Made by a program: the position numbers and the translations under genes. Shown piece by piece: positions 52,688-62,077 of a DNA stretch of 64,000 bases. The DNA is from a virus (lineage: Duplodnaviria > Caudoviricetes), in the IMG/VR virus record IMGVR_UViG_3300043255_000003, positions 7,224 to 71,223 of that record. One strand, written 5' to 3'. The stretch's first letter is position 1, and every line of letters begins with the position of its first letter. The notes beneath the pieces were generated by a model that was given only the letters and a program-made list of their open reading frames with translations, was not told the origin of the DNA and did not search any database.

Positions 52688-55600
52688 CTAAAATAAATCG
52701 ATGAGTGGTTCAACCTGTTTCGCAAGCGCGTTCTTCCGCTTACGCAGGCTCTCCAGTTGCTTCTGGCGGATCTCTGGCTTCAGCCTTTGGTTCAACGCCA
52801 CTTGGTTAAGCTGTCTGTTTACTGCGGTGACCTGCCGCTGGATCGAGCGCAGTCGTTTCCGCGCAGCGAGTATACCGGCTTCGTCTCGACGCAGATCCAT
52901 GGCGGCTTCAAACTGCCCGGTCTCCTGATAGACCTTGAGTGTGCGCGCCAGTCCGTCGGCTTCCTTCATCATCTCCCACAAGAGTTGGTTGTACTTGGTG
53001 CTGGTCGGCACCTTGCTCTGCGCGAACCGCTTCACGACAGGGATGTCATGCAGTGGTAGGGCTGCGATCTCACCAAGCGCACGCGTTGGTCCGTGCAGAA
53101 TGCTATCGGTTAACACGTTGCCGACACCGAGCACGTAGACACCGAGCGCACCGAAGTAGCCTTGGATCAATGCTTCGAGACGTTTCGGTGACTGTAGAAA
53201 GTCCGGCGCGATGTCCGGCAGCGTGCGACCCACGGCACGGGCGAAGCTGCCAGTGCGGAAGTCGTACTGCGCATCGGGCTTCAGGTTCTCCAGTCCCAGC
53301 GGCACGATCGGTGTGCCCCGGAACATATTTCTGTTGGTGGTGTCCTCGATGATCGGGCGCACCAACTGCGGGTACGGGTTGAACGCGAACGTGTGGAATG
53401 CCGACGCGCCCATGCGCTCGAAGAATATGTCCCAGCCTTCCTGTCCTTTCAGTGCCAGCGTCAGGCGTTCAGGGATGGTCGAGAACATGACGCCAGCCTC
53501 GAATGGTTTCGGCAAACGAAAATGCGAGTCGCCAATAAAGAAATGGTAGTACGTGTCCTTGTCCCACTGCGACAGCGCACGGTAGCGTTCGTCGTCGTCG
53601 TTCATCAGCGTGTACGCAATCGACAGCGCAACCAGTGAGCCAGCCTTCATGCTGAACCCGAGCGGATGTTCCTTGGCACCTCTGTAGAACTTGTTCAGAC
53701 CTTGCAGTCGTGCGTTCAGGAACGGCACCATCTGGATCATCATCTGCGTCGCGACCCAGTCACCTGACCGGGTGAAGTTCAACAAGTCCTGTGCTTGGAA
53801 CGCGGCCTCGGATGGTGACGCGATACCTTCCTCGATCGTCTGCGCGGCGGCAGCCTGCGGCGACAGTCCCTGTTGCTCCAGTTCAGCGGTGCGCTTGTGC
53901 CACAACTCGACCTTCGCATTGTAAATGCGCACGCGGTTACCAAACTCTGATGCAGTACCGACGCGTCGCCACAACTTCCACATCTTGCGAGGTGACACGA
54001 TCGTGTTCATGAAAGAGTTCATGTCCGCTTCGGCCACGCCCACGTCTTTGAGCAGGCCACGGATCTGTTCCGGGTTGGTGTCGTAGAACCCACCGCCACC
54101 ACGACCAGCGAACGCGAGGTGCAACATGGCAGGCGAGTCGTTGAACGCTTCACGCACCGCAGTGATGGGAGCGGACAGCGAATTGATCGGTGCGTCCGAC
54201 ACGATGAGCGATGACACCGTGTCCCGCATCCAGTTAGCGATCATGAATGCAGGGTCAGTGGTGACACCTAACGTGAGCCACTTCTTCGACGTGCGGAACG
54301 CAGTCATCCACGAACCGAGTTGATCACCACGCAGGCCAGCGATCGAACGCAGCATCAGCGGGTCGTCAACAAAGTAGTAGGTCGGCTTGCCGTCCACCAT
54401 CAACGTGACCACGTCTTCACCCGGTGGCTTCACGCGTGACCAGAACGTCTGCCATCGCTGTTGCTCATTCTTCGGCCACGTATCGAACACAGCCTCGGCT
54501 GCGTCGGCGCTCTCTTCAGAGATGAGTCCTGACTTCCACAACAGGTTGACCAATTCTTTCTTGCTGACCGTGACGACAGGGCGCGCAACCATCGGTGCCT
54601 TGCGCATCGCCCCTGTCATGGTGCCGAGGTCAGTGATGCGCTTCATGCTTTCATTGCGGTACGAACGCTCCAGCAGGTACGCAGTGTTCATGAACATCGA
54701 CTCGATCACGTTGCCTTCCAGCTTCAGCGGACTGCCTTCGCGATCGACACCGCCACGCAAACGGAACAGACCAGAGCCACCGACATCGATGCGGTCGCGT
54801 CCTGCGCCCGGTGCTGCCCTGTTCTCAAGCTGCGTCATCTCTCTCCAGAACGGAACGTAGTCATACCGACGCCACAGTTCCGCTTCTTCCTTGTTGATCA
54901 CGCCGGTCTCGATTGCGAGATCGATGTTCGCTTGGTTCAGCGTGTCCCAGTTCGCCAGCACTTCCTCGAAGACTTCCTCGTAGGTCCGGCCATCATCAGC
55001 GGTGCGATCGCGTGCCCATGCCAACGTGTCGTCAACAAGTTCCTCTTCGACATTCTTCTCGCGAGCACCCGCCTCGCCGACACGTCCAGCATGGATGTCC
55101 TCATCGATGAGCCTGCGTGATCGTCGTGCGACTGCCCACTTCTCCCAGTTGCGCATCTGTGACTCGCCACTGATCGCACCGAGCGGCAGGAACACTGACT
55201 GGAATGACTGCGCGTCTTCCTGCTCACGGAAGTTGCGGCCAGTCACGGTGCGCTCGACACCGTTCAGGTCTTTGAGTTTCTGCGTCGCTGTTTTCAAGGT
55301 GGGAATGCCATGGCGCATCACCGCACCCATGACGTTGTTCATGTTGCGCAGCGTCGAGGTCGATTTATATGCCGACAGGCTGGCGTCGAGGATCTGACCG
55401 AACAGCGCAAGTTCCTGTGACTTGATCGCATTGAACCCGTCGAAGATACCCTGCGTGACCTCATCGAACGACAGGTCGTGGAACATCTGCAGTGACTGCT
55501 TGATCCTGTCGCTGAACGTCTGCTCGTTCTTCGGCACGTTCATCGCTTTCTTCCAGCGCCCGTCGAGGTCTTCATTCATCGGCGCGTTGTCACTGAACAG

Positions 55601-58600
55601 TGGCTCATTGAACTCTCTGGCCAGACGCTCCAGTGCTGCGCCGACCTGCTCATCATTGCCAGCCTTGCGCAGATCCTTCAGGTTGTCGGACGCGAGGAAG
55701 TCGTTGTACTCCTGCGAGTTGCGATCGACACCGATGCCACCCGCTGCCAGCGCCCGCATCTGTGCGCGACGACGGCTGGCTCGGATCATGCCCATCACTT
55801 CGCTGCTGCCGGGTACGGTTTTGAACCCCAGCTTCTGAACGAACGCCTTGATCTGCGCGATGATCTCTTGCATGGCACCGTTGCGAGTGGCCGAGGTCTC
55901 TGCCATGTACGCGATCACCTCTTCAACGAACACCTCTGGCTTGACAGTGCCGCGACTCTCCACCGCTTCGACCGCACGCATCAGCACCTCGTCCGTACCA
56001 CGATCGATCATCGCTTGGACCTGCGACTGAACCGCGTCGAAGTTTGGCAGCGTGCGCATCGAGTAGTGACCGAACACTTCGTGCATGATCACCCGCTCTG
56101 CATCGGCAGCGTTGTGCAGGTTGTCGGCGACGATGTGAACCTCGTTGCTGCTCGGTGAGAACACACCCTTGATGCGTGTGCCCCGGTTCTTCATGCGAGC
56201 AGGCAGGTCGGACACCGACTGCACTACCTTGATCCTGACCACTGAGTTCATGGTCTGGATGATGTCGATCACCGCCAGACGTGCGTCGTCTGCGTCCATG
56301 CCATCAGCTTCTTTATCGCGACGCTTCGGATCTGTGTACCGAAGGATGCGATCGTCCGCACTCAGGAGTTCGTCTGTCTCTTTGGCGTCACTAAGCTGGG
56401 CTGCTGCACCCGAAGCTGCTGCCGCAGGCCGATCAACCTCGGCGACTGTGGACTGGATTCCTCCAGCGTTGATATCTGCTTCTGTAAGGATCGCACCTGT
56501 AGCTGATTTCCCGGCGGCGGCGGCTTGCGCGGCGGTGTTTGGATTGCCATTAGATTTTGCCCTCTCGATTGCGGCGATGAGTTCCGAGTCAGGAACCTGT
56601 TGCCATGTGTTCAGGTCGATGCCTGCGGTGGGATCACGCTGCTGATCGAACGCGAGCAGCGCCTCGGTTTCTTCCAGCGCGATCAGGATGTCTTTGACAT
56701 CGACGGCACCTTCGTCGGGCACGAACCCGTTCTCCCCGTTCTCCCCGAACTCACCAGTCAGCGATCGATACATTGCATCGGCGACGTTGATACGGATCTC
56801 TGAGTTGAACTGCTCGTCGGTGATTGTGATGCCAAGTTCCGCCGTCAACATGCGGCCCACCCGGAACGCCACCTCTTCCCACTCGATCGCACGCTGCGCT
56901 TCCATCAGCGTTAGCGGCTCAAGCGGAACCTTTACTGCCTTGCCTTTCTTGCCACGCAATCCCTCATAGTCTCGACCCAAGCGACCGTAGCGTTTGCTGT
57001 CGCCATACTTGGTCTGCATGAACTGCTCGGTGATGCCGTGAGCCATCTCATGCGAGACACGCCATGCCAGCGTGTAGGCCGAGTCCTTGAATGAACCTTC
57101 GGAGTTGCGCGGATCATAAATCCACACCGTGCCGTTCTCGTAACCGTCTTTGTTGAGACGCGGGATGTTCACCTCGACGTTCTTTGCCGGGTTGGCTTTG
57201 AACGAAAAGAATTTTACGAGGTACCCGTGTTGCGCAGCTTGGTCGAGCACCTGCTGGGGGTCGGCTGTCAACTGCTCCAGCGGATAGATCTTGAGTTGTT
57301 CCTGTGTGTTCTTCCCTGTGAACGTGCCGAAGCGGCCAGTGATTTCTACGATTGCTTGTCCGAACGTATCGATCAGTCGAGCCAAGGGTACTGGTGCCCT
57401 AATGGGCCTTGGTTCGGATCTTTCCGCTTCTCTTTTTGCGGCTTCGGCCTTGCTTCTGCTGGTGACTTCGCTGGCGACTTGGTTTGAGATCCCGTCGAGA
57501 ACTTTCCGCCGACTACGAAGCCACGGGAGTATATCGGCGAATCCGGCTTCGCTAATCTTATCTTCAATCCACCGGCCTTCCGGGTCGGTGTCCCAGCTTT
57601 CGTCGTTCGGTCCTTCGCCATGGTATTCACCCTCTGCTCTGAACTCTTCGATTATATCAACGTCACCAATCTCACCGTCGATGGAGTTGGCGAAATCTAG
57701 GAACAACCCACGGAATGTAGGGTCCGTTATTCCGTGTAACGACTTACCTGTTTCCGTGTTCCTGAAGTTGATGAACGCGTACTCACCCGGCGCGGTGCGA
57801 GTGAACCCGCCATCGCGATCAACCATGGCTGTCAGGCGGCTGAACATATCCTCTTCCTGCGCCGCCGTCAGTTCATCGGTGAACGTGATGCTGAAGCCAA
57901 CGCTCTTGTCCGCGCCGGTCAGGTTCGGCGCGGCCCTGAACCACGGCACTGCGTCCTGCCGGAACAGGTACTGCGATGCCAGTGAGTACGCGTCCACCTG
58001 TTGCCGACTCGGTGCAGTTTCACCCGTCTCTTGCGATGCCAGCACGCCGCTCAGTCGTAACGGGTTGATGGTCCGCTCACCTTCTTCAGTGACATAGCCA
58101 CCTGTCTCTGTCTGCTGCGTGCCCAGTTCAATACCCAGTTGTGCGGCCAGCAGATCCTCGCCCTGTTCGCCGGTCAGGTTCTCGCCGATGAGCCTGTCGA
58201 GTGTCAGCTTATCCTCGAAGGTTGCCCCTTGCAGTGCCTTACCAATGTCCAGCTTCGTGGACGGCACCGTCTCAGCGGTCGAGAATTGACTGCGTCGCTT
58301 GAGGTTTGTCTGGAAGTCCTCGGACTTTGGCACGAACTCATCAAAAATGGTCTTCGGTTTGTTGTTCGCTGACTTCTTGAGTTGCTGCGCCAACTGTTTT
58401 TTGTTCAGCTTGGCGAGATTTTCTTCCTTCAGCTTGTTGTTTAGCACGCGTATGCTTTCGATCAACTGGCCCTTGCTGTTGTCGGTGGCCAACGCCCGCA
58501 CTGACTTGGCTTGTCCGATCGCAGTCACACCAGCTACCCGTTCTTGCTTGGCTTGAGCCTCATCGTTCTTGACCTTGGTCCAGACAGCGGCCTGCAACAT

Positions 58601-61600
58601 GCGTGGCTTGATGTCTTCGAGGTTCGAGTGCTTACGATTGAATGACTCAGTCGCTCGGATCATGACCTCTCGCCCGAACGCGTACTGGGCATCCGTTGGT
58701 GTTTCCTTGTCGAAGCCCATCAGGCGCATCATCCAGAGATCGATCGTACTGTCATCGCCGAACGTGTCTTCATTGAACAGCGGGTCATGCAGGTTGCGAT
58801 AGAACGACAGGACTTTCTTCTCTACGCCCGCCACATCAGTGGTCATTTTCTCGGCCTTGAGAATGCTATCGATCAGCGGGGCTGTCTTTTTCGGGAACCG
58901 GCCAGCCAGCGGCGCGACGTTGCCATCAAGATACTCATTCAGTGAACGTATCGCCGCCGTTGTGTTAGCCGAGACAGAATTCGCTTGCGAGTACAGCGCC
59001 ATCAGCCGGGTCAGTTGCTCCATCCGCTCCGGGTTACCGCGTGCAACCCTGCGAATCTCCTGCGCGGATCGTTCGTACCAGAACAGCGATGAGTCTTTTC
59101 GGATCGTACCTTTCGCTGCGTTGAAACGGGCCATCGCATTCGTCTTGCTCACCGCGTTGACCATGCGTCGGATCAGCCCGGCGACCTGCCTCTCCGTCTT
59201 GATGCCTTCCGGCGCACCCGAGACATCGCCCTTCGCATTCAAGCGACGCTTGCCGCCTTTGTTTCGCTTCGGGCCGGGGAGTTCTTCGTCAGAGAGTAAG
59301 TCGATCTGCTCTACGATGTCGTCGTCTTCAACAGGAGCGGTGGCGATGTTCCGGGCGACCTGCGCAATCGTTGCGTCATCCGCTGGTGCAGGCACGCCAC
59401 TCTCGGCAGTGAAGTCCACCTCTTCCTGCTCACCGACAACAGCCTTGGCATGAGCCACCTTGACCTCTTCGTCCCGGACAGTTTCTTCCGGCTTAACTTT
59501 CTTGGCCTCGCCCTTCGTTGCTGGTGCGGTCGCGATCGGAGCAGGTGTAGCTGACGCAGCGGCCCGGACGTTCTTCGCGATGGTTGCCTTGTTGTCTTTG
59601 CTCCGTACTGGCACGCCCAGTGCTTCGGCATCACGAACCAGTGCATTGCGTGAGCCAGTGGTCGCGAACTCTTCGTCGGTCTTCGGGGTCAGCACACGCG
59701 TGCGCAGTTCCTTGTCCTTGCGGAACGTCTTCGCCTCTGGTGTCTCGTTGGCAGCCGTCACCTGATTGTCGAACAGGCGCTGACGCTTGACAGTCTTGTT
59801 GCCCGACGATGGCAGGCCCAGATCTTTCAGCGCAGTGGTCAACTGCGCCGAGTCGATGTCGATGTCCGGCAGCGTCTTGTCGTTGAGGGTGATGTTCGGG
59901 TTGTTGAACGCAGCGACAGTCTGCTGTGGTGCCTGACCACCGACACCCGTGACGATCGATGTTACAGCGGCCTGATCCTCGGCCCCCTTGGCTTGCGCTT
60001 CGGCGGTTGCGGCTTTCGGCTTGGCGGCTGCGGTTTCTTTCTTCCCGGTGGTCTTGGCAGGGGCAGCGGCTGCGGCTTTTTCTTTCCGTGCTTCCCCTTT
60101 CCGATCGGGTCTCTCGTCCCGGCCTGTACGTCCGGTCGGCTGTTGAACATCCGCGCCGCCTTCCCCGCTGACGCTGTCGGGCTTAGTCCCTCGTTGCTGA
60201 ACTTTCGCTTCAGTGTCTCGAACTGTTGTGGCACCTTGCACCTCCTGATCTGGTTCCTGAACGGTGGTCTCATCCACCTCTTCGACATTGGCCTGCGCTA
60301 CTCCGCTGGCCTCTTCGGTTGTTACGTTGGCGGCACCGCCTGCAGGTCCAGCGCCGGGATCAATCTCTGGGAGTTCGCCTTCCTCTGCTGCTTCGATGTT
60401 CGCTGCCGCTGCTTCTGCAGGCGGCAGTGGTCTGTTATCCACGATGCCGATCGCCGCACCAGATCCGGGGATCAGGAACGACGCAATGAATGCAGCCGGG
60501 GCGACGCTGACCTCGTCCTTGATTTTCTTTATGGCCTCTTCGACCGTGATCGTTTCCTGTCCCAGTTGGATCAGTGCTTCGGCTGGGCCTTCCGCCCACT
60601 CGGTGACGGCTTCGACCAGACCACGCACGACCTTGGCCTTCACACCGGGGGCAACTTTAAGAAACCGTTCTATACCGACCGCGTTCAGGATGCCGGTGGC
60701 TGCGAACATCATCAGCCCTGCGTTCTCCGCAGTCTCGCGAGACACCTCTTCGGACGCGCCGTTCTCTCGCATGATGGCCAGCGTCTCGCGGTACGTGGAT
60801 GACCCTTCGAGAGCACCGCCTACTGCCAAACCAGCGGACATGCCAGCGGATACCTGCGCCTTGCCGATGCGCGCCACCTTCGCCACCACCAGCGGGTCAG
60901 TCATGTCGAGACTTCGGTTGCCGACTTTGATGATTGTGTCCTTGGCTCCTTTTTCTGCCGCCTTGCCGACGCCTCGCCTGCCTGCTGTCTTGGCCAGTTC
61001 CTTGAGCATGTGCTTTCGCACGGCAGCACTTGCGGCACCAGCCGGGGTGAACGTGGCTGCCAGCGACGGAATGATCGACCCGACCTGAAAGGCCATGAAG
61101 TCACCGTCGAGCCACATCTCCTTGTTGTCGATCAGGTTGCCGGTCGGCAGGTTCGCGGCCCGTACAAAATTCTCTTGGCGTTTCTGCCAATACTTCTCAA
61201 TACTCACGCCCAGATCCGCGACCGCATCGATGCCTACCTCGTAGCCCAGATAGTTCACCACGGTGCCGATCTGTCCTGCCATCCCCAAGGTGCCAGCGGC
61301 CAGACCGCGACCGAAGTTGGCGAACAGTCCGCCGCCCTCGCCCTCGGCTATGGCAGCAGCTTTTGCCTGCAAGGTCTCTGGTGTGTCTTCAGGTGTGACC
61401 ACCCGTAGGGACGGATCTTGAGTCAGGGCTGCCTGAGACGCCGCTGGCGGGGATATCTGCCTGCGTACCTCCGCGAGCATCGCGGTCTGCCTTGCGCCTT
61501 CCTCACGGGCCAACTGACGTGTCTGGGACAGGTTCCTACCAGATCCGTCGGGCTGTACTGGGATCAATGTGCCCGGCGCGACGGTCGGCGGACGCGGCAG

Positions 61601-62077
61601 GCCCGCTCCACCTCGCTCGTTCGCAGCTTGGACTGCCCGCTGCGCCGGGCCTTGGACCTGCGGCTGTGCCCGGTGCCCGTTCAACTGGGCAACCATGTCC
61701 TCGCGAGCCACCGCAGCACGGCGGGCCGCTTCGTCAGGTGATGGCAGCGGGCGGTCGAACCGTGCCCGGAACTCGTTCTGCTCCCGGACCCTGTCTGCCG
61801 GGGCGCGGTCATCAAACGCGGCGATCGGCCCGGTGTCTGTCGCGACCGTGGCCACTGGCAAGTTCTCCAGCGGAGCATTCTGCTTGCCAGCCTGCACGTC
61901 GGTGATGTCGGTGACGATCCTGCGCCCCTGCTCCGGGGAGATCGCGCCTGTGGATAAACCTGTGGCTAAGTTGTTTACATCTTTGAATCTGGGCAGCGCA
62001 CGGGCGTCCCTCAGAATCGCCTCTGGATCAAGCGGATTCAGAGACGGCGAGGTAGGCGGGCGCGGGAGGACTGCCAT
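52688..62077 (-). CDS. Giant polyvalent internal virion / DNA-ejection protein with C-terminal LPD38-like domain
   Basis: 3129 aa. Gly/Ala-rich membrane-active region, SAP-like motif, glycosylase-like helical domain, HEMAH and HEVFGH zincin-type motifs, and C-terminal WDKDTYYHFFIG..HFRLPKPFE.G. Confidence 0.8.
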   Translation of the reverse strand: MAVLPRPPTSPSLNPLDPEAILRDARALPRFKDVNNLATGLSTGAISPEQGRRIVTDITDVQAGKQNAPLENLPVATVATDTGPIAAFDDRAPADRVREQNEFRARFDRPLPSPDEAARRAAVAREDMVAQLNGHRAQPQVQGPAQRAVQAANERGGAGLPRPPTVAPGTLIPVQPDGSGRNLSQTRQLAREEGARQTAMLAEVRRQISPPAASQAALTQDPSLRVVTPEDTPETLQAKAAAIAEGEGGGLFANFGRGLAAGTLGMAGQIGTVVNYLGYEVGIDAVADLGVSIEKYWQKRQENFVRAANLPTGNLIDNKEMWLDGDFMAFQVGSIIPSLAATFTPAGAASAAVRKHMLKELAKTAGRRGVGKAAEKGAKDTIIKVGNRSLDMTDPLVVAKVARIGKAQVSAGMSAGLAVGGALEGSSTYRETLAIMRENGASEEVSRETAENAGLMMFAATGILNAVGIERFLKVAPGVKAKVVRGLVEAVTEWAEGPAEALIQLGQETITVEEAIKKIKDEVSVAPAAFIASFLIPGSGAAIGIVDNRPLPPAEAAAANIEAAEEGELPEIDPGAGPAGGAANVTTEEASGVAQANVEEVDETTVQEPDQEVQGATTVRDTEAKVQQRGTKPDSVSGEGGADVQQPTGRTGRDERPDRKGEARKEKAAAAAPAKTTGKKETAAAKPKAATAEAQAKGAEDQAAVTSIVTGVGGQAPQQTVAAFNNPNITLNDKTLPDIDIDSAQLTTALKDLGLPSSGNKTVKRQRLFDNQVTAANETPEAKTFRKDKELRTRVLTPKTDEEFATTGSRNALVRDAEALGVPVRSKDNKATIAKNVRAAASATPAPIATAPATKGEAKKVKPEETVRDEEVKVAHAKAVVGEQEEVDFTAESGVPAPADDATIAQVARNIATAPVEDDDIVEQIDLLSDEELPGPKRNKGGKRRLNAKGDVSGAPEGIKTERQVAGLIRRMVNAVSKTNAMARFNAAKGTIRKDSSLFWYERSAQEIRRVARGNPERMEQLTRLMALYSQANSVSANTTAAIRSLNEYLDGNVAPLAGRFPKKTAPLIDSILKAEKMTTDVAGVEKKVLSFYRNLHDPLFNEDTFGDDSTIDLWMMRLMGFDKETPTDAQYAFGREVMIRATESFNRKHSNLEDIKPRMLQAAVWTKVKNDEAQAKQERVAGVTAIGQAKSVRALATDNSKGQLIESIRVLNNKLKEENLAKLNKKQLAQQLKKSANNKPKTIFDEFVPKSEDFQTNLKRRSQFSTAETVPSTKLDIGKALQGATFEDKLTLDRLIGENLTGEQGEDLLAAQLGIELGTQQTETGGYVTEEGERTINPLRLSGVLASQETGETAPSRQQVDAYSLASQYLFRQDAVPWFRAAPNLTGADKSVGFSITFTDELTAAQEEDMFSRLTAMVDRDGGFTRTAPGEYAFINFRNTETGKSLHGITDPTFRGLFLDFANSIDGEIGDVDIIEEFRAEGEYHGEGPNDESWDTDPEGRWIEDKISEAGFADILPWLRSRRKVLDGISNQVASEVTSRSKAEAAKREAERSEPRPIRAPVPLARLIDTFGQAIVEITGRFGTFTGKNTQEQLKIYPLEQLTADPQQVLDQAAQHGYLVKFFSFKANPAKNVEVNIPRLNKDGYENGTVWIYDPRNSEGSFKDSAYTLAWRVSHEMAHGITEQFMQTKYGDSKRYGRLGRDYEGLRGKKGKAVKVPLEPLTLMEAQRAIEWEEVAFRVGRMLTAELGITITDEQFNSEIRINVADAMYRSLTGEFGENGENGFVPDEGAVDVKDILIALEETEALLAFDQQRDPTAGIDLNTWQQVPDSELIAAIERAKSNGNPNTAAQAAAAGKSATGAILTEADINAGGIQSTVAEVDRPAAAASGAAAQLSDAKETDELLSADDRILRYTDPKRRDKEADGMDADDARLAVIDIIQTMNSVVRIKVVQSVSDLPARMKNRGTRIKGVFSPSSNEVHIVADNLHNAADAERVIMHEVFGHYSMRTLPNFDAVQSQVQAMIDRGTDEVLMRAVEAVESRGTVKPEVFVEEVIAYMAETSATRNGAMQEIIAQIKAFVQKLGFKTVPGSSEVMGMIRASRRRAQMRALAAGGIGVDRNSQEYNDFLASDNLKDLRKAGNDEQVGAALERLAREFNEPLFSDNAPMNEDLDGRWKKAMNVPKNEQTFSDRIKQSLQMFHDLSFDEVTQGIFDGFNAIKSQELALFGQILDASLSAYKSTSTLRNMNNVMGAVMRHGIPTLKTATQKLKDLNGVERTVTGRNFREQEDAQSFQSVFLPLGAISGESQMRNWEKWAVARRSRRLIDEDIHAGRVGEAGAREKNVEEELVDDTLAWARDRTADDGRTYEEVFEEVLANWDTLNQANIDLAIETGVINKEEAELWRRYDYVPFWREMTQLENRAAPGAGRDRIDVGGSGLFRLRGGVDREGSPLKLEGNVIESMFMNTAYLLERSYRNESMKRITDLGTMTGAMRKAPMVARPVVTVSKKELVNLLWKSGLISEESADAAEAVFDTWPKNEQQRWQTFWSRVKPPGEDVVTLMVDGKPTYYFVDDPLMLRSIAGLRGDQLGSWMTAFRTSKKWLTLGVTTDPAFMIANWMRDTVSSLIVSDAPINSLSAPITAVREAFNDSPAMLHLAFAGRGGGGFYDTNPEQIRGLLKDVGVAEADMNSFMNTIVSPRKMWKLWRRVGTASEFGNRVRIYNAKVELWHKRTAELEQQGLSPQAAAAQTIEEGIASPSEAAFQAQDLLNFTRSGDWVATQMMIQMVPFLNARLQGLNKFYRGAKEHPLGFSMKAGSLVALSIAYTLMNDDDERYRALSQWDKDTYYHFFIGDSHFRLPKPFEAGVMFSTIPERLTLALKGQEGWDIFFERMGASAFHTFAFNPYPQLVRPIIEDTTNRNMFRGTPIVPLGLENLKPDAQYDFRTGSFARAVGRTLPDIAPDFLQSPKRLEALIQGYFGALGVYVLGVGNVLTDSILHGPTRALGEIAALPLHDIPVVKRFAQSKVPTSTKYNQLLWEMMKEADGLARTLKVYQETGQFEAAMDLRRDEAGILAARKRLRSIQRQVTAVNRQLNQVALNQRLKPEIRQKQLESLRKRKNALAKQVEPLIDLF
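56362..56550 (-). CDS. Nested overprinted ORF C (+1 frame inside the giant gene)
   Basis: 62 aa MAIQTPP...SLQKQISTLEESSPQSPRLIGLRQQL. RBS GAGAGGG 9 nt upstream. Host-frame codons are locally atypical. Confidence 0.55.
   Translation of the reverse strand: MAIQTPPRKPPPPGNQLQVRSLQKQISTLEESSPQSPRLIGLRQQLRVQQPSLVTPKRQTNS
57373..57621 (-). CDS. Nested overprinted ORF B (+1 frame inside the giant gene)
   Basis: 82 aa MAKDRT...LKIRLAKPDSPIYSRGFVVGG. RBS GAGGGT 7 nt upstream. The host frame uses AGA/AGG/ATA codons here. Confidence 0.6.
   Translation of the reverse strand: MAKDRTTKAGTPTRKAGGLKIRLAKPDSPIYSRGFVVGGKFSTGSQTKSPAKSPAEARPKPQKEKRKDPNQGPLGHQYPWLD
59962..60234 (-). CDS. Nested overprinted ORF A (+1 frame inside the giant gene)
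   Basis: 90 aa from GTG: VPQQFETLKRKFSNEGLSPTASAGKAARMFNSR. Perfect AGGAGG 6 nt upstream. Confidence 0.65.
   Translation of the reverse strand: MPQQFETLKRKFSNEGLSPTASAGKAARMFNSRPDVQAGTRDPIGKGKHGKKKPQPLPLPRPPGRKKPQPPSRKPQPPKRKPRGPRIRPL

Follow-up and report, generated by a model that had tools for sequence, protein, structure and literature searches.

Three small ORFs, designated A, B and C, lie in the +1 frame of a gene for a giant virion protein, and comparison with related sequences makes it probable that all three are genuine protein-coding genes. Ribosomes would initiate independently at the internal Shine-Dalgarno (SD)-like motif and start codon of each ORF, on a late mRNA common with the giant protein, and the predicted products are small basic proteins of 90, 82 and 62 aa. 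Three independent, well-selected hidden genes within one host gene would be unusual for a tailed phage.

Nested ORFs in a giant polyvalent-protein gene

The window analysed is a stretch of viral DNA of 64,000 nt. The host gene occupies 52688–62077 on the minus strand (9.4 kb, 3129 aa) and encodes a virion protein of the phage-type, LPD38-type polyvalent class: a single polypeptide combines LPD38 (aa 2829–3004, E 2.8e-35) with several unrelated domains, including DUF7178 (aa 980–1171) and the HEMAH zincin-like domain (56543–57415, minus strand, about aa 1555–1845). A 109-aa ORF and then an amidase endolysin gene follow downstream, and the giant gene is positioned at the end of the late operon, ahead of the lysis genes. 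Among its relatives the middle domains are interchanged, with SLT, Zeta toxin, InPase, GNAT and ART-PolyVal domains being found there. The phage-type LPD38 polyvalent proteins described previously (Iyer et al. 2017, PMC5512222) likewise combine LPD38, DUF7178, a zincin-like domain and giant size; a term search of that paper returned no mention of overlapping frames or frameshifts, and our search of the literature found no published description of these hidden genes.

All three ORFs lie wholly inside this larger ORF, on the same (minus) strand and out of frame with it. ORF A (59962–60234, 90 aa) begins with GTG at 60234, 6 nt behind the SD-like motif AGGAGG (60241–60246, minus strand). ORF B (57373–57621, 82 aa) begins with ATG at 57621, 7 nt behind GAGGGT (57629–57634, minus strand), and ORF C (56362–56550, 62 aa) with ATG at 56550, 9 nt behind GAGAGGG (56560–56566, minus strand). 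The initial annotation had proposed these ORFs, their +1 offset from the 3129-codon frame and their SD-like motifs and spacers, and all of these are present in the sequence.

Purifying selection on the +1 frame

Long +1 ORFs are readily expected in this gene. Synonymous-codon shuffles of the giant gene often yield comparable +1 ORFs (p 0.13–0.78), with region A open in 62–78% of them, and eight of the gene's +1 ORFs reach 60 aa or more. The lengths and number of A, B and C are within chance expectation, and the case beyond chance therefore rests on comparative evidence; ORF length was dropped as evidence in either direction. The longest +1 ORF (59311–59646, minus strand, 111 aa), which is absent from the ORFs listed in the initial annotation, served as a negative control. 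It is interrupted by 8 and 3 stops in two relatives and, by this comparison, is a chance ORF; a second control +1 ORF of similar length (55227–54937) also contains stops in relatives.

The initial annotation had further described a switch of the host frame to A/T-ending and AGA/AGG codons within the three ORFs. A/T-ending host codons are indeed more frequent there (45% in A, 44% in B and 52% in C, versus 29% outside), but AGA/AGG codons are enriched solely in B, at 5 of 10 Arg codons. Host-frame GC3 and CAI fall inside all three ORFs. Codon adaptation of the +1 frame is only marginally above that of background +1 frames, too small a margin to identify the ancestral frame.

We compared the frames in a four-way codon alignment of giant genes comprising 2781 ungapped columns, in which background amino-acid identity is 0.51 for the host frame, 0.31 for +1 and 0.28 for +2. 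Identity in the +1 frame exceeds that of the host frame solely at host aa 608–683, 1527–1575 and 1836–1900, the excess being 0.21–0.39 in A, B and C and at most 0.008 in the background. Synonymous constraint on the host frame, which the initial annotation had put forward as a check, is pronounced: host third codon positions are 70–92% identical within the nested ORFs versus 40% elsewhere, and identity in 20-codon windows peaks at 0.92 in A, 0.83 in B and 0.81 in C, against a background of 0.405 ± 0.087 with a maximum of 0.64 (2145 windows). The NG86 pN/pS ratio is 0.36 (A), 0.25 (B) and 0.40 (C) in the +1 frame and 1.90, 1.67 and 1.16, respectively, in the host frame; these tests, like those on synonymous sites, rely on simple estimators with a bias where genes overlap, on saturated comparisons, with relatives of retrievable DNA that are only moderately distant (at most about 50% host identity). 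Within these bounds, the alignments show purifying selection on the +1 frame of A, B and C across relatives that is stronger than selection on the host frame.

Could the ORFs simply be chance products of an Ala/Glu/Lys-rich linker composition, or the mark of an RNA or DNA element or of recent recombination? Shuffles that preserve both protein and codon usage often generate such ORFs, and long alternative-frame ORFs are common in GC-rich genomes. Against this, the codon periodicity is phased to +1, with the host first position most variable and the second and third conserved, a pattern that neither an RNA or DNA element nor a recent transfer would produce. Protein-level homologues also occur as separate genes, and the control +1 ORFs are not conserved. 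We thus consider an explanation of this kind extremely improbable.

Conserved starts and ribosome-binding motifs

In a six-frame HMM search, all significant matches to A, B and C fall in the +1 frame of the giant gene. Every copy has an aligned ATG or GTG behind an SD-like motif (seven nested copies for A and, always with ATG, six for C), so that each ORF appears, at the level of sequence only, to possess its own conserved start and ribosome-binding site; the homology alignment also backs the start codons originally chosen. The SD position of ORF A is occupied by aggagg, aggag or aaggga in relatives. The ORF B motif is identical in L002 and has purine-rich counterparts in distant relatives, while that of ORF C is replaced by agggc, gagggc or gagagg in three relatives and by gcaggagc in the L008 copy, located on the L006 contig.

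SD-like motifs within genes are able to stimulate frameshifting, as in prfB and dnaX. The conserved peptides could accordingly be alternative C-termini of truncated giant-protein isoforms made by programmed +1 frameshifting, with the conserved +1 stops setting the isoform ends. Several features besides the N-terminal ATG or GTG aligned in every copy make this highly unlikely. Free-standing homologues open with the same Met-Pro-Lys or Met-Ala-Lys, and sequence inspection revealed neither a conserved slippery motif nor a host-frame stop at the sites. Moreover, a +1 stop adjoins the start in L008 and lies 4 codons upstream of it in L004 and 6–12 codons upstream in L007, L010, L012 and L013; stops this close leave no room for a shift site ahead of the conserved peptide.

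ORFs A and C encode predicted helical hairpins

ORF A has the core MPxQFxxLKxKFxxxGLSPxAxAGKAARxFNSRxDVQxGxRxPIGKG, an LPRPP motif and a basic tail. Its predicted fold is a helical hairpin with helices at residues 3–14 and 19–31, modelled with a pLDDT of 96–98 over residues 1–30 and 91 over residues 31–40. The initial annotation had pointed to similar cores in small stand-alone phage proteins, and such relatives exist for A as well as for B. For A, a profile search recovered 84 small free-standing proteins that align from their own Met1 and share the consensus MPKxYExMRDxFxxxG[LM]SxxAAKxKAAxIYN; ORF A matches the profile from Met1 through the two-helix core, beyond which lies the basic tail. 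The two free-standing relatives whose neighbourhoods we read, P0025 and P0027, are each a gene of their own within a phage head/packaging cluster, one with a portal gene two genes downstream and the other with a small-terminase gene three genes upstream. Because these relatives sit among head/packaging genes, ORF A may have a head/packaging-linked role, and a hairpin with a basic tail may equally serve nucleic-acid binding. The A family has nothing above threshold in Pfam or PHROGs, the nearest being a weak DUF7218 match (E 0.0055), and Foldseek of the ORF A model against the PDB gave no significant match.

ORF C has the core PRKPPxxGNQxQxRxLQKQIxxLExxxPxSPRLxxLRQQL and is also predicted to form a helical hairpin, with helices at residues 16–32 and 37–52 and a pLDDT of 84–92 over residues 21–50. 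No homologue was detected among called proteins of 33–149 aa or among genome contigs, and the family is known only in nested form, from six copies. HHalign matched the N-terminal helix module of L003-type B proteins to C (probability 24%, P 8e-4), too weakly to argue that the two are paralogues.

ORF B overlaps the first motif of the HEMAH domain

The ORF B product is largely disordered and is marked by a pair of short conserved motifs. From the N-terminus it consists of a basic segment, motif 1 PDSPIYSRGFVVGG, an S/P/K-rich spacer and a C-terminal GPLGHQYPWLD, and it carries both signatures of its family, [DP]P[IR][YF]SxGFx[IV]G for motif 1 and LPH[QR]YP[WY][IL]D for motif 2; 36 called small proteins belong to this family. 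The end of ORF B shares the initial 14 codons of the HEMAH domain. In the dual-coding core (57376–57396, minus strand), HQYPWLD in the +1 frame is superimposed on host codons GCA CCA GTA CCC TTG GCT CGA, which encode the first HEMAH-domain motif, APVPLAR. Across eight relatives, host third positions under HQYPW are invariant at four of five codons, with variation at host first positions and in the host residues. No family was found for any of the three ORFs in Pfam or PHROGs, nor did the ESM Atlas provide a usable lead for B or C; a profile search of PDB sequences with the HEMAH domain returned no match.

The initial annotation had suggested that the nested genes encode antidotes, inhibitors or chaperones, each devoted to the effector domain next in line (A to a SAP/glycosylase-like block, B to HEMAH and C to HEVFGH), which would constitute a toxin-immunity-like system within one gene. 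Partial agreement comes from B: of the 27 HEMAH-bearing giant genes examined, 24 carry its motif LPHQYPW[IL]D overlapping the first conserved HEMAH motif. B also accompanies the domain when it appears in other architectures, for instance in the ART-PolyVal giants L013 and L014. Co-translation from one mRNA would also bring their synthesis into step. However, the overlap by itself forces B and the domain to be inherited together. Strict co-occurrence of small protein and domain does not hold: at 7 of 15 metagenome loci B is free-standing, HEMAH is absent nearby and the frame in which a giant gene would lie is not open across B, and a B-like ORF is retained next to C in L005 and L006, which lack the HEMAH domain. 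The free-standing relatives of A occur in head/packaging clusters rather than beside glycosylase-like genes, and in distant relatives C was not detected ahead of the HEVFGH-like domains, contrary to the pairing proposed for C. A, B and C are thus probably not obligate antidotes of the adjacent domains, and we regard dedicated partnership with the following domain as unlikely.

Comparison with known systems and possible origin

A close parallel to genuine nested genes of this type is lambda Rz1 within Rz (PMC5295617), likewise a small gene wholly nested on the same strand, shifted to +1 and provided with a start of its own, in a late phage operon, with both frames selected and a separate small gene in related phages. 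The present case differs in that three unrelated small genes occupy one 9.4-kb gene, their partnership with the host protein is only putative, and a lipoprotein signal, lipobox Cys and transmembrane segment are all missing from A, B and C, which are therefore not spanins. An Rz1-like spanin identity was considered and rejected, the translations having neither a lipobox Cys nor a hydrophobic N-terminus; B, C and A as annotated from GTG 60234 contain no Cys, and a longer reading of A from ATG 60288 contains one, upstream of the GTG. The out-of-frame HNH endonuclease in the ShiLan insertion of a phage methylase gene (PMC11855218) is similarly a pre-existing gene inside a still-open host ORF, where the host frame yields a loop or linker that is tolerated, but ShiLan is a homing element with a recognisable enzyme, whereas A, B and C are small and non-enzymatic and show no signs of homing.

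Overprinting as in phiX174 (PMC8227390) shares with our ORFs dual coding, phase-shifted constraint and basic, partly disordered alternative-frame proteins. In classical overprinting, however, the new frame is less constrained and is without free-standing relatives, whereas here the nested frame is the more constrained one and ordinary-gene versions exist for two of the three families. Together, these two differences suggest that genes already in existence were engulfed and not born de novo; engulfment during gene fusion would be a route to overlap formation that is unlike textbook overprinting. The small genes would have been independent units, later read through by the growing polyvalent gene, and the host "linkers" at these sites would largely be a by-product of translating through the small genes, and not the small genes a by-product of the linkers.

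The products of A, B and C might act as accessory factors that are synthesised alongside the giant protein. A broader proposal, which we offer tentatively and hold to be possible though not favoured, is that giant polyvalent genes grow by reading through small neighbours, which survive in the linkers as hidden, independently translated genes, and that the products of these genes work with the giant protein. The putatively polyprotein-processing zincin-like domain, for instance, could be gated or assisted by B, and A and C could help to load or escort the giant protein in head assembly. If this proposal is true, hidden genes would be a general component, missing from annotations, of these conflict proteins in both phages and conjugative elements. 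The "disordered linkers" of polyvalent proteins should not be taken for mere spacers, as engineering or deleting a linker would knock out genes nested within it.

Occurrence in sequence collections

Nested ORFs are discarded by gene callers, which renders the A, B and C families almost invisible: A and B surface only as occasional "hypothetical proteins", for the most part on short contigs, and C does not surface at all. Our search of genome contigs found no homologue of ORF A, and tBLASTn of cultured phages with a nested ORF A copy and one free-standing A relative gave no match. The middle of the giant gene likewise had no match in the cultured-phage collection by BLASTn or tBLASTn (the latter with host aa 560–1959). 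Fragments of a relative, differing at up to about 16% of positions, are present in sequencing run X5.

The giant gene and its open +1 frame

The giant gene (52688-62077, minus strand) encodes a 3129-aa protein with C-terminal LPD38 (E 2.8e-35) and DUF7178 domains, hallmarks of phage-type polyvalent proteins (PMC5512222). Downstream of it lie a 109-aa ORF and then an amidase endolysin gene. Its source is a 71.2-kb virus contig, ~95% complete according to IMG/VR, of which the window covers 64 kb. Runs with nearly all sampled words of the window were marine-sediment metagenomes and one unlabelled metagenome from another study, and no others. When aa 550-1950 of the giant (host) protein were searched against a collection of 5.8 billion proteins, the nearest relatives showed 46-47% identity across this segment; relatives have the N-terminal ~600 aa and the C-terminal ~1500 aa in common, with a swappable middle. 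Contig fragments of a relative differing from the window at no more than ~16% of positions were present in X5, a marine-sediment sequencing run of another study. The only HExxH match in the protein is HEMAH (aa 1676); HEVFGH (host aa ~1950-1960), previously taken for a second zincin motif, is HExxxH, not HExxH.

ORF A (60234-59962), ORF B (57621-57373) and ORF C (56550-56362), all on the minus strand, are present as the initial annotation described them, in the +1 frame of the giant gene, and on inspection of the sequence their SD-like motifs and spacers matched its description exactly. The shift in host codon usage that it reported held in part: A/T-ending codons make up 44-52% inside the ORFs versus 29% outside, but AGA/AGG codons are enriched in B alone. 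An open +1 frame is by itself not remarkable in this gene. Its +1 frame contains eight ORFs of at least 60 aa, stop-free runs on the opposite strand reach 382 codons, and the observed +1 ORF lengths and counts were typical of 1000 synonymous-codon shuffles (p 0.13-0.78), with region A open in 62-78% of them. The longest +1 ORF (59646-59311, minus strand, 111 aa), which had not been listed initially, carries stops in two of three relatives, and the third-longest (54937-55227, minus strand, 96 aa) carries stops in all three. Judging by these stops, both are chance ORFs and useful internal negative controls.

Conservation at ORFs A, B and C follows the +1 frame

In a codon alignment of the giant gene with those of three relatives (loci L002, L003 and L004; 2781 ungapped columns), overall amino acid identity was 0.51 for the host frame, against 0.31 for +1 and 0.28 for +2, and nucleotide identity at host codon positions 1/2/3 was 0.61/0.70/0.42 over the whole alignment. 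The pattern was reversed only at host aa 608-683, 1527-1575 and 1836-1900, which correspond to ORF A, to B over its C-terminal half, and to C. Across the cores of A, B and C, +1-frame amino acid identity was 0.70, 0.71 and 0.64 (background 0.29), while host-frame identity was 0.48, 0.52 and 0.46 (background 0.52). Host third positions were conserved far above background: in windows of 20 codons, third-position identity peaked at 0.92, 0.83 and 0.81, against a background of 0.405 +/- 0.087 with a maximum of 0.64 (2145 windows). Values of pN/pS were 0.36, 0.25 and 0.40 in the +1 frame and 1.90, 1.67 and 1.16 in the host frame. Within the three regions, the most variable codon position is the host first position. 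Such a phase pattern is what selection acting mainly on the +1 frame should produce. Conservation arising from an RNA or DNA element, or from recent recombination, is not expected to look like this.

The clearest single site suggesting +1-frame constraint is the HQYPW motif of B, which overlies host codons GCA CCA GTA CCC YTG. Across eight relatives, four of the five host third positions are invariant, whereas the host first positions and residues vary (A/S/D, P/A/S, V/I, P/S and L/V). On this comparative evidence, the reading of A, B and C as three real nested genes is strongly supported.

Start sites favor independent initiation

Every copy of A, B and C has an ATG or GTG aligned with its proposed start, preceded by a purine-rich SD-like motif. 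A starts with GTG in the window (60234); four relatives have ATG at this place and two more have GTG. B proteins begin with MAK or MTG, and C proteins with MP in relative L005 and with MA in the other five copies. The +1 peptides might instead be entered by frameshifting from the host frame; however, several relatives have a +1 stop at a distance of 0-12 codons upstream of the start, leaving little room for such entry, which favors independent initiation of translation.

Nested and free-standing relatives

When all giant genes with retrieved DNA were searched in six frames with HMMs, each significant match to A, B or C was offset +1 from the giant frame. A is nested in seven giant genes, including the divergent L007, and C in six. 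B is by far the most widespread: it is found in giant genes bearing SLT, Zeta/InPase and ART-PolyVal domains, and of 16 further HEMAH-bearing loci from IMG/VR, 14 contain it, the most divergent, AT-rich loci alone being without it. Two IMG/VR relatives, L005 and L006, have a giant protein with a replaced middle and no DUF7178-HEMAH; here a B-like ORF that lacks the HQYPW tail (L005:8977-9375; L006:10120-10599) ends 0-3 codons before the ATG of C, so that the two form a tandem pair of hidden genes in the +1 frame.

Free-standing relatives were found for two of the three families. A profile of nested A gave 84 matches at E <= 0.001 among 1.84 billion representative proteins, nearly all of them 37-130 aa long and with alignments that begin at Met1 of the matched protein; their consensus, MPKxYExMRDxFxxxG[LM]SxxAAKxKAAxIYN, is followed by a basic tail. 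By gene calls, the closest match (P0025, E 7e-16) is encoded by a gene of its own, with a small-terminase gene three genes upstream of it, and another family member (P0027) adjoins a holin gene and has an SU10-type portal gene two genes downstream. The A family had no match above threshold in Pfam or PHROGs. The B profile matched 36 proteins called 'hypothetical', and a metagenome scan yielded 15 new loci. The giant frame runs open through B at eight of these; in the other seven it is closed (46-119 codons), so B is free-standing there. Free-standing B has diverse neighbors, namely an ADP-ribosylglycohydrolase together with a DUF3293 protein, lipoprotein-like proteins, or a DAHP synthase gene (~1.4 kb upstream of B in L055, the locus of P0128). 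Small-protein relatives, mentioned in the initial annotation for all three cores, exist for A and B, while C had none beyond its nested copies among the called small proteins and contigs searched. P0019, which may be a split version of the giant gene, stops at the point where C starts.

Some B-family proteins have features of their own. The free-standing P0141 (141 aa; L042:1540-2708, also in L041) has an extra N-terminal hydrophobic segment; its gene lies downstream of the one for the ADP-ribosylglycohydrolase and, at its stop codon, overlaps the open frame of the DUF3293 protein gene that comes next, in what looks like a conflict-system context. P0112 and P0114 (L048:1099-1452) carry motif 1 (PDDPIFSxKFV[IV]GG...ASPxSSK) twice in tandem before a single LPHQYPWID. 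At the free-standing B of L048:1272-1514, the closed -1 frame is 51% identical over 61 aa to the giant-protein host frame, including AAPVPVDRL, either as a by-product of B conservation or as a remnant of a former giant gene.

Origin and function of the nested genes

Embedded genes are known in phages, including Rz1 within Rz (PMC5295617), those of phiX174 (PMC8227390) and a hidden HNH gene within the ShiLan insertion (PMC11855218). When the paper on polyvalent proteins (PMC5512222) was searched by term, neither overlapping frames nor frameshifts turned up, and the literature searched contained no description of genes nested in polyvalent giant genes.

Each nested protein had been proposed as an antidote or chaperone of the effector block that follows it. 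In its favor, B is tightly linked to HEMAH in giant genes (24 of the 27 HEMAH-bearing genes examined overall), although this link is at least partly forced by an overlap of ~14 codons between the two coding sequences. The proposal loses support because A and B also have free-standing copies, none of the seven free-standing B loci having a HEMAH domain within reach, and because B-like ORFs persist without HEMAH. That the nested frame is the more constrained, and that two of the three families also occur as ordinary genes, instead favors an origin in which the giant ORF, during domain accretion, came to read through pre-existing small genes; the host 'linkers' at A, B and C would then be largely a by-product of these genes. 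The three proteins likely serve accessory functions alongside the giant virion protein late in infection, and any specific role is assigned with low confidence.

Searches by fold and by feature yielded no clue to the function of A, B or C. AlphaFold2 predicted, from a 76-sequence alignment, two helices in A (3-14 and 19-31; pLDDT 91-98 over residues 1-40) followed by a disordered basic tail. C is predicted to form a helical hairpin (16-32 and 37-52; pLDDT 84-92 over residues 21-50, with six sequences only), and B appears largely disordered with two short conserved motifs. In three relatives (L003:7119-7250; L004:7284-7424; L006:10171-10341), the helix-turn-helix-like stretch at the start of B (LExQIKRLEExG...PLKxQL) is similar to the C core (LQKQISxLEE..SPRL..LRQQL); profile comparison was weak (P 8e-4), and paralogy between the two is possible.
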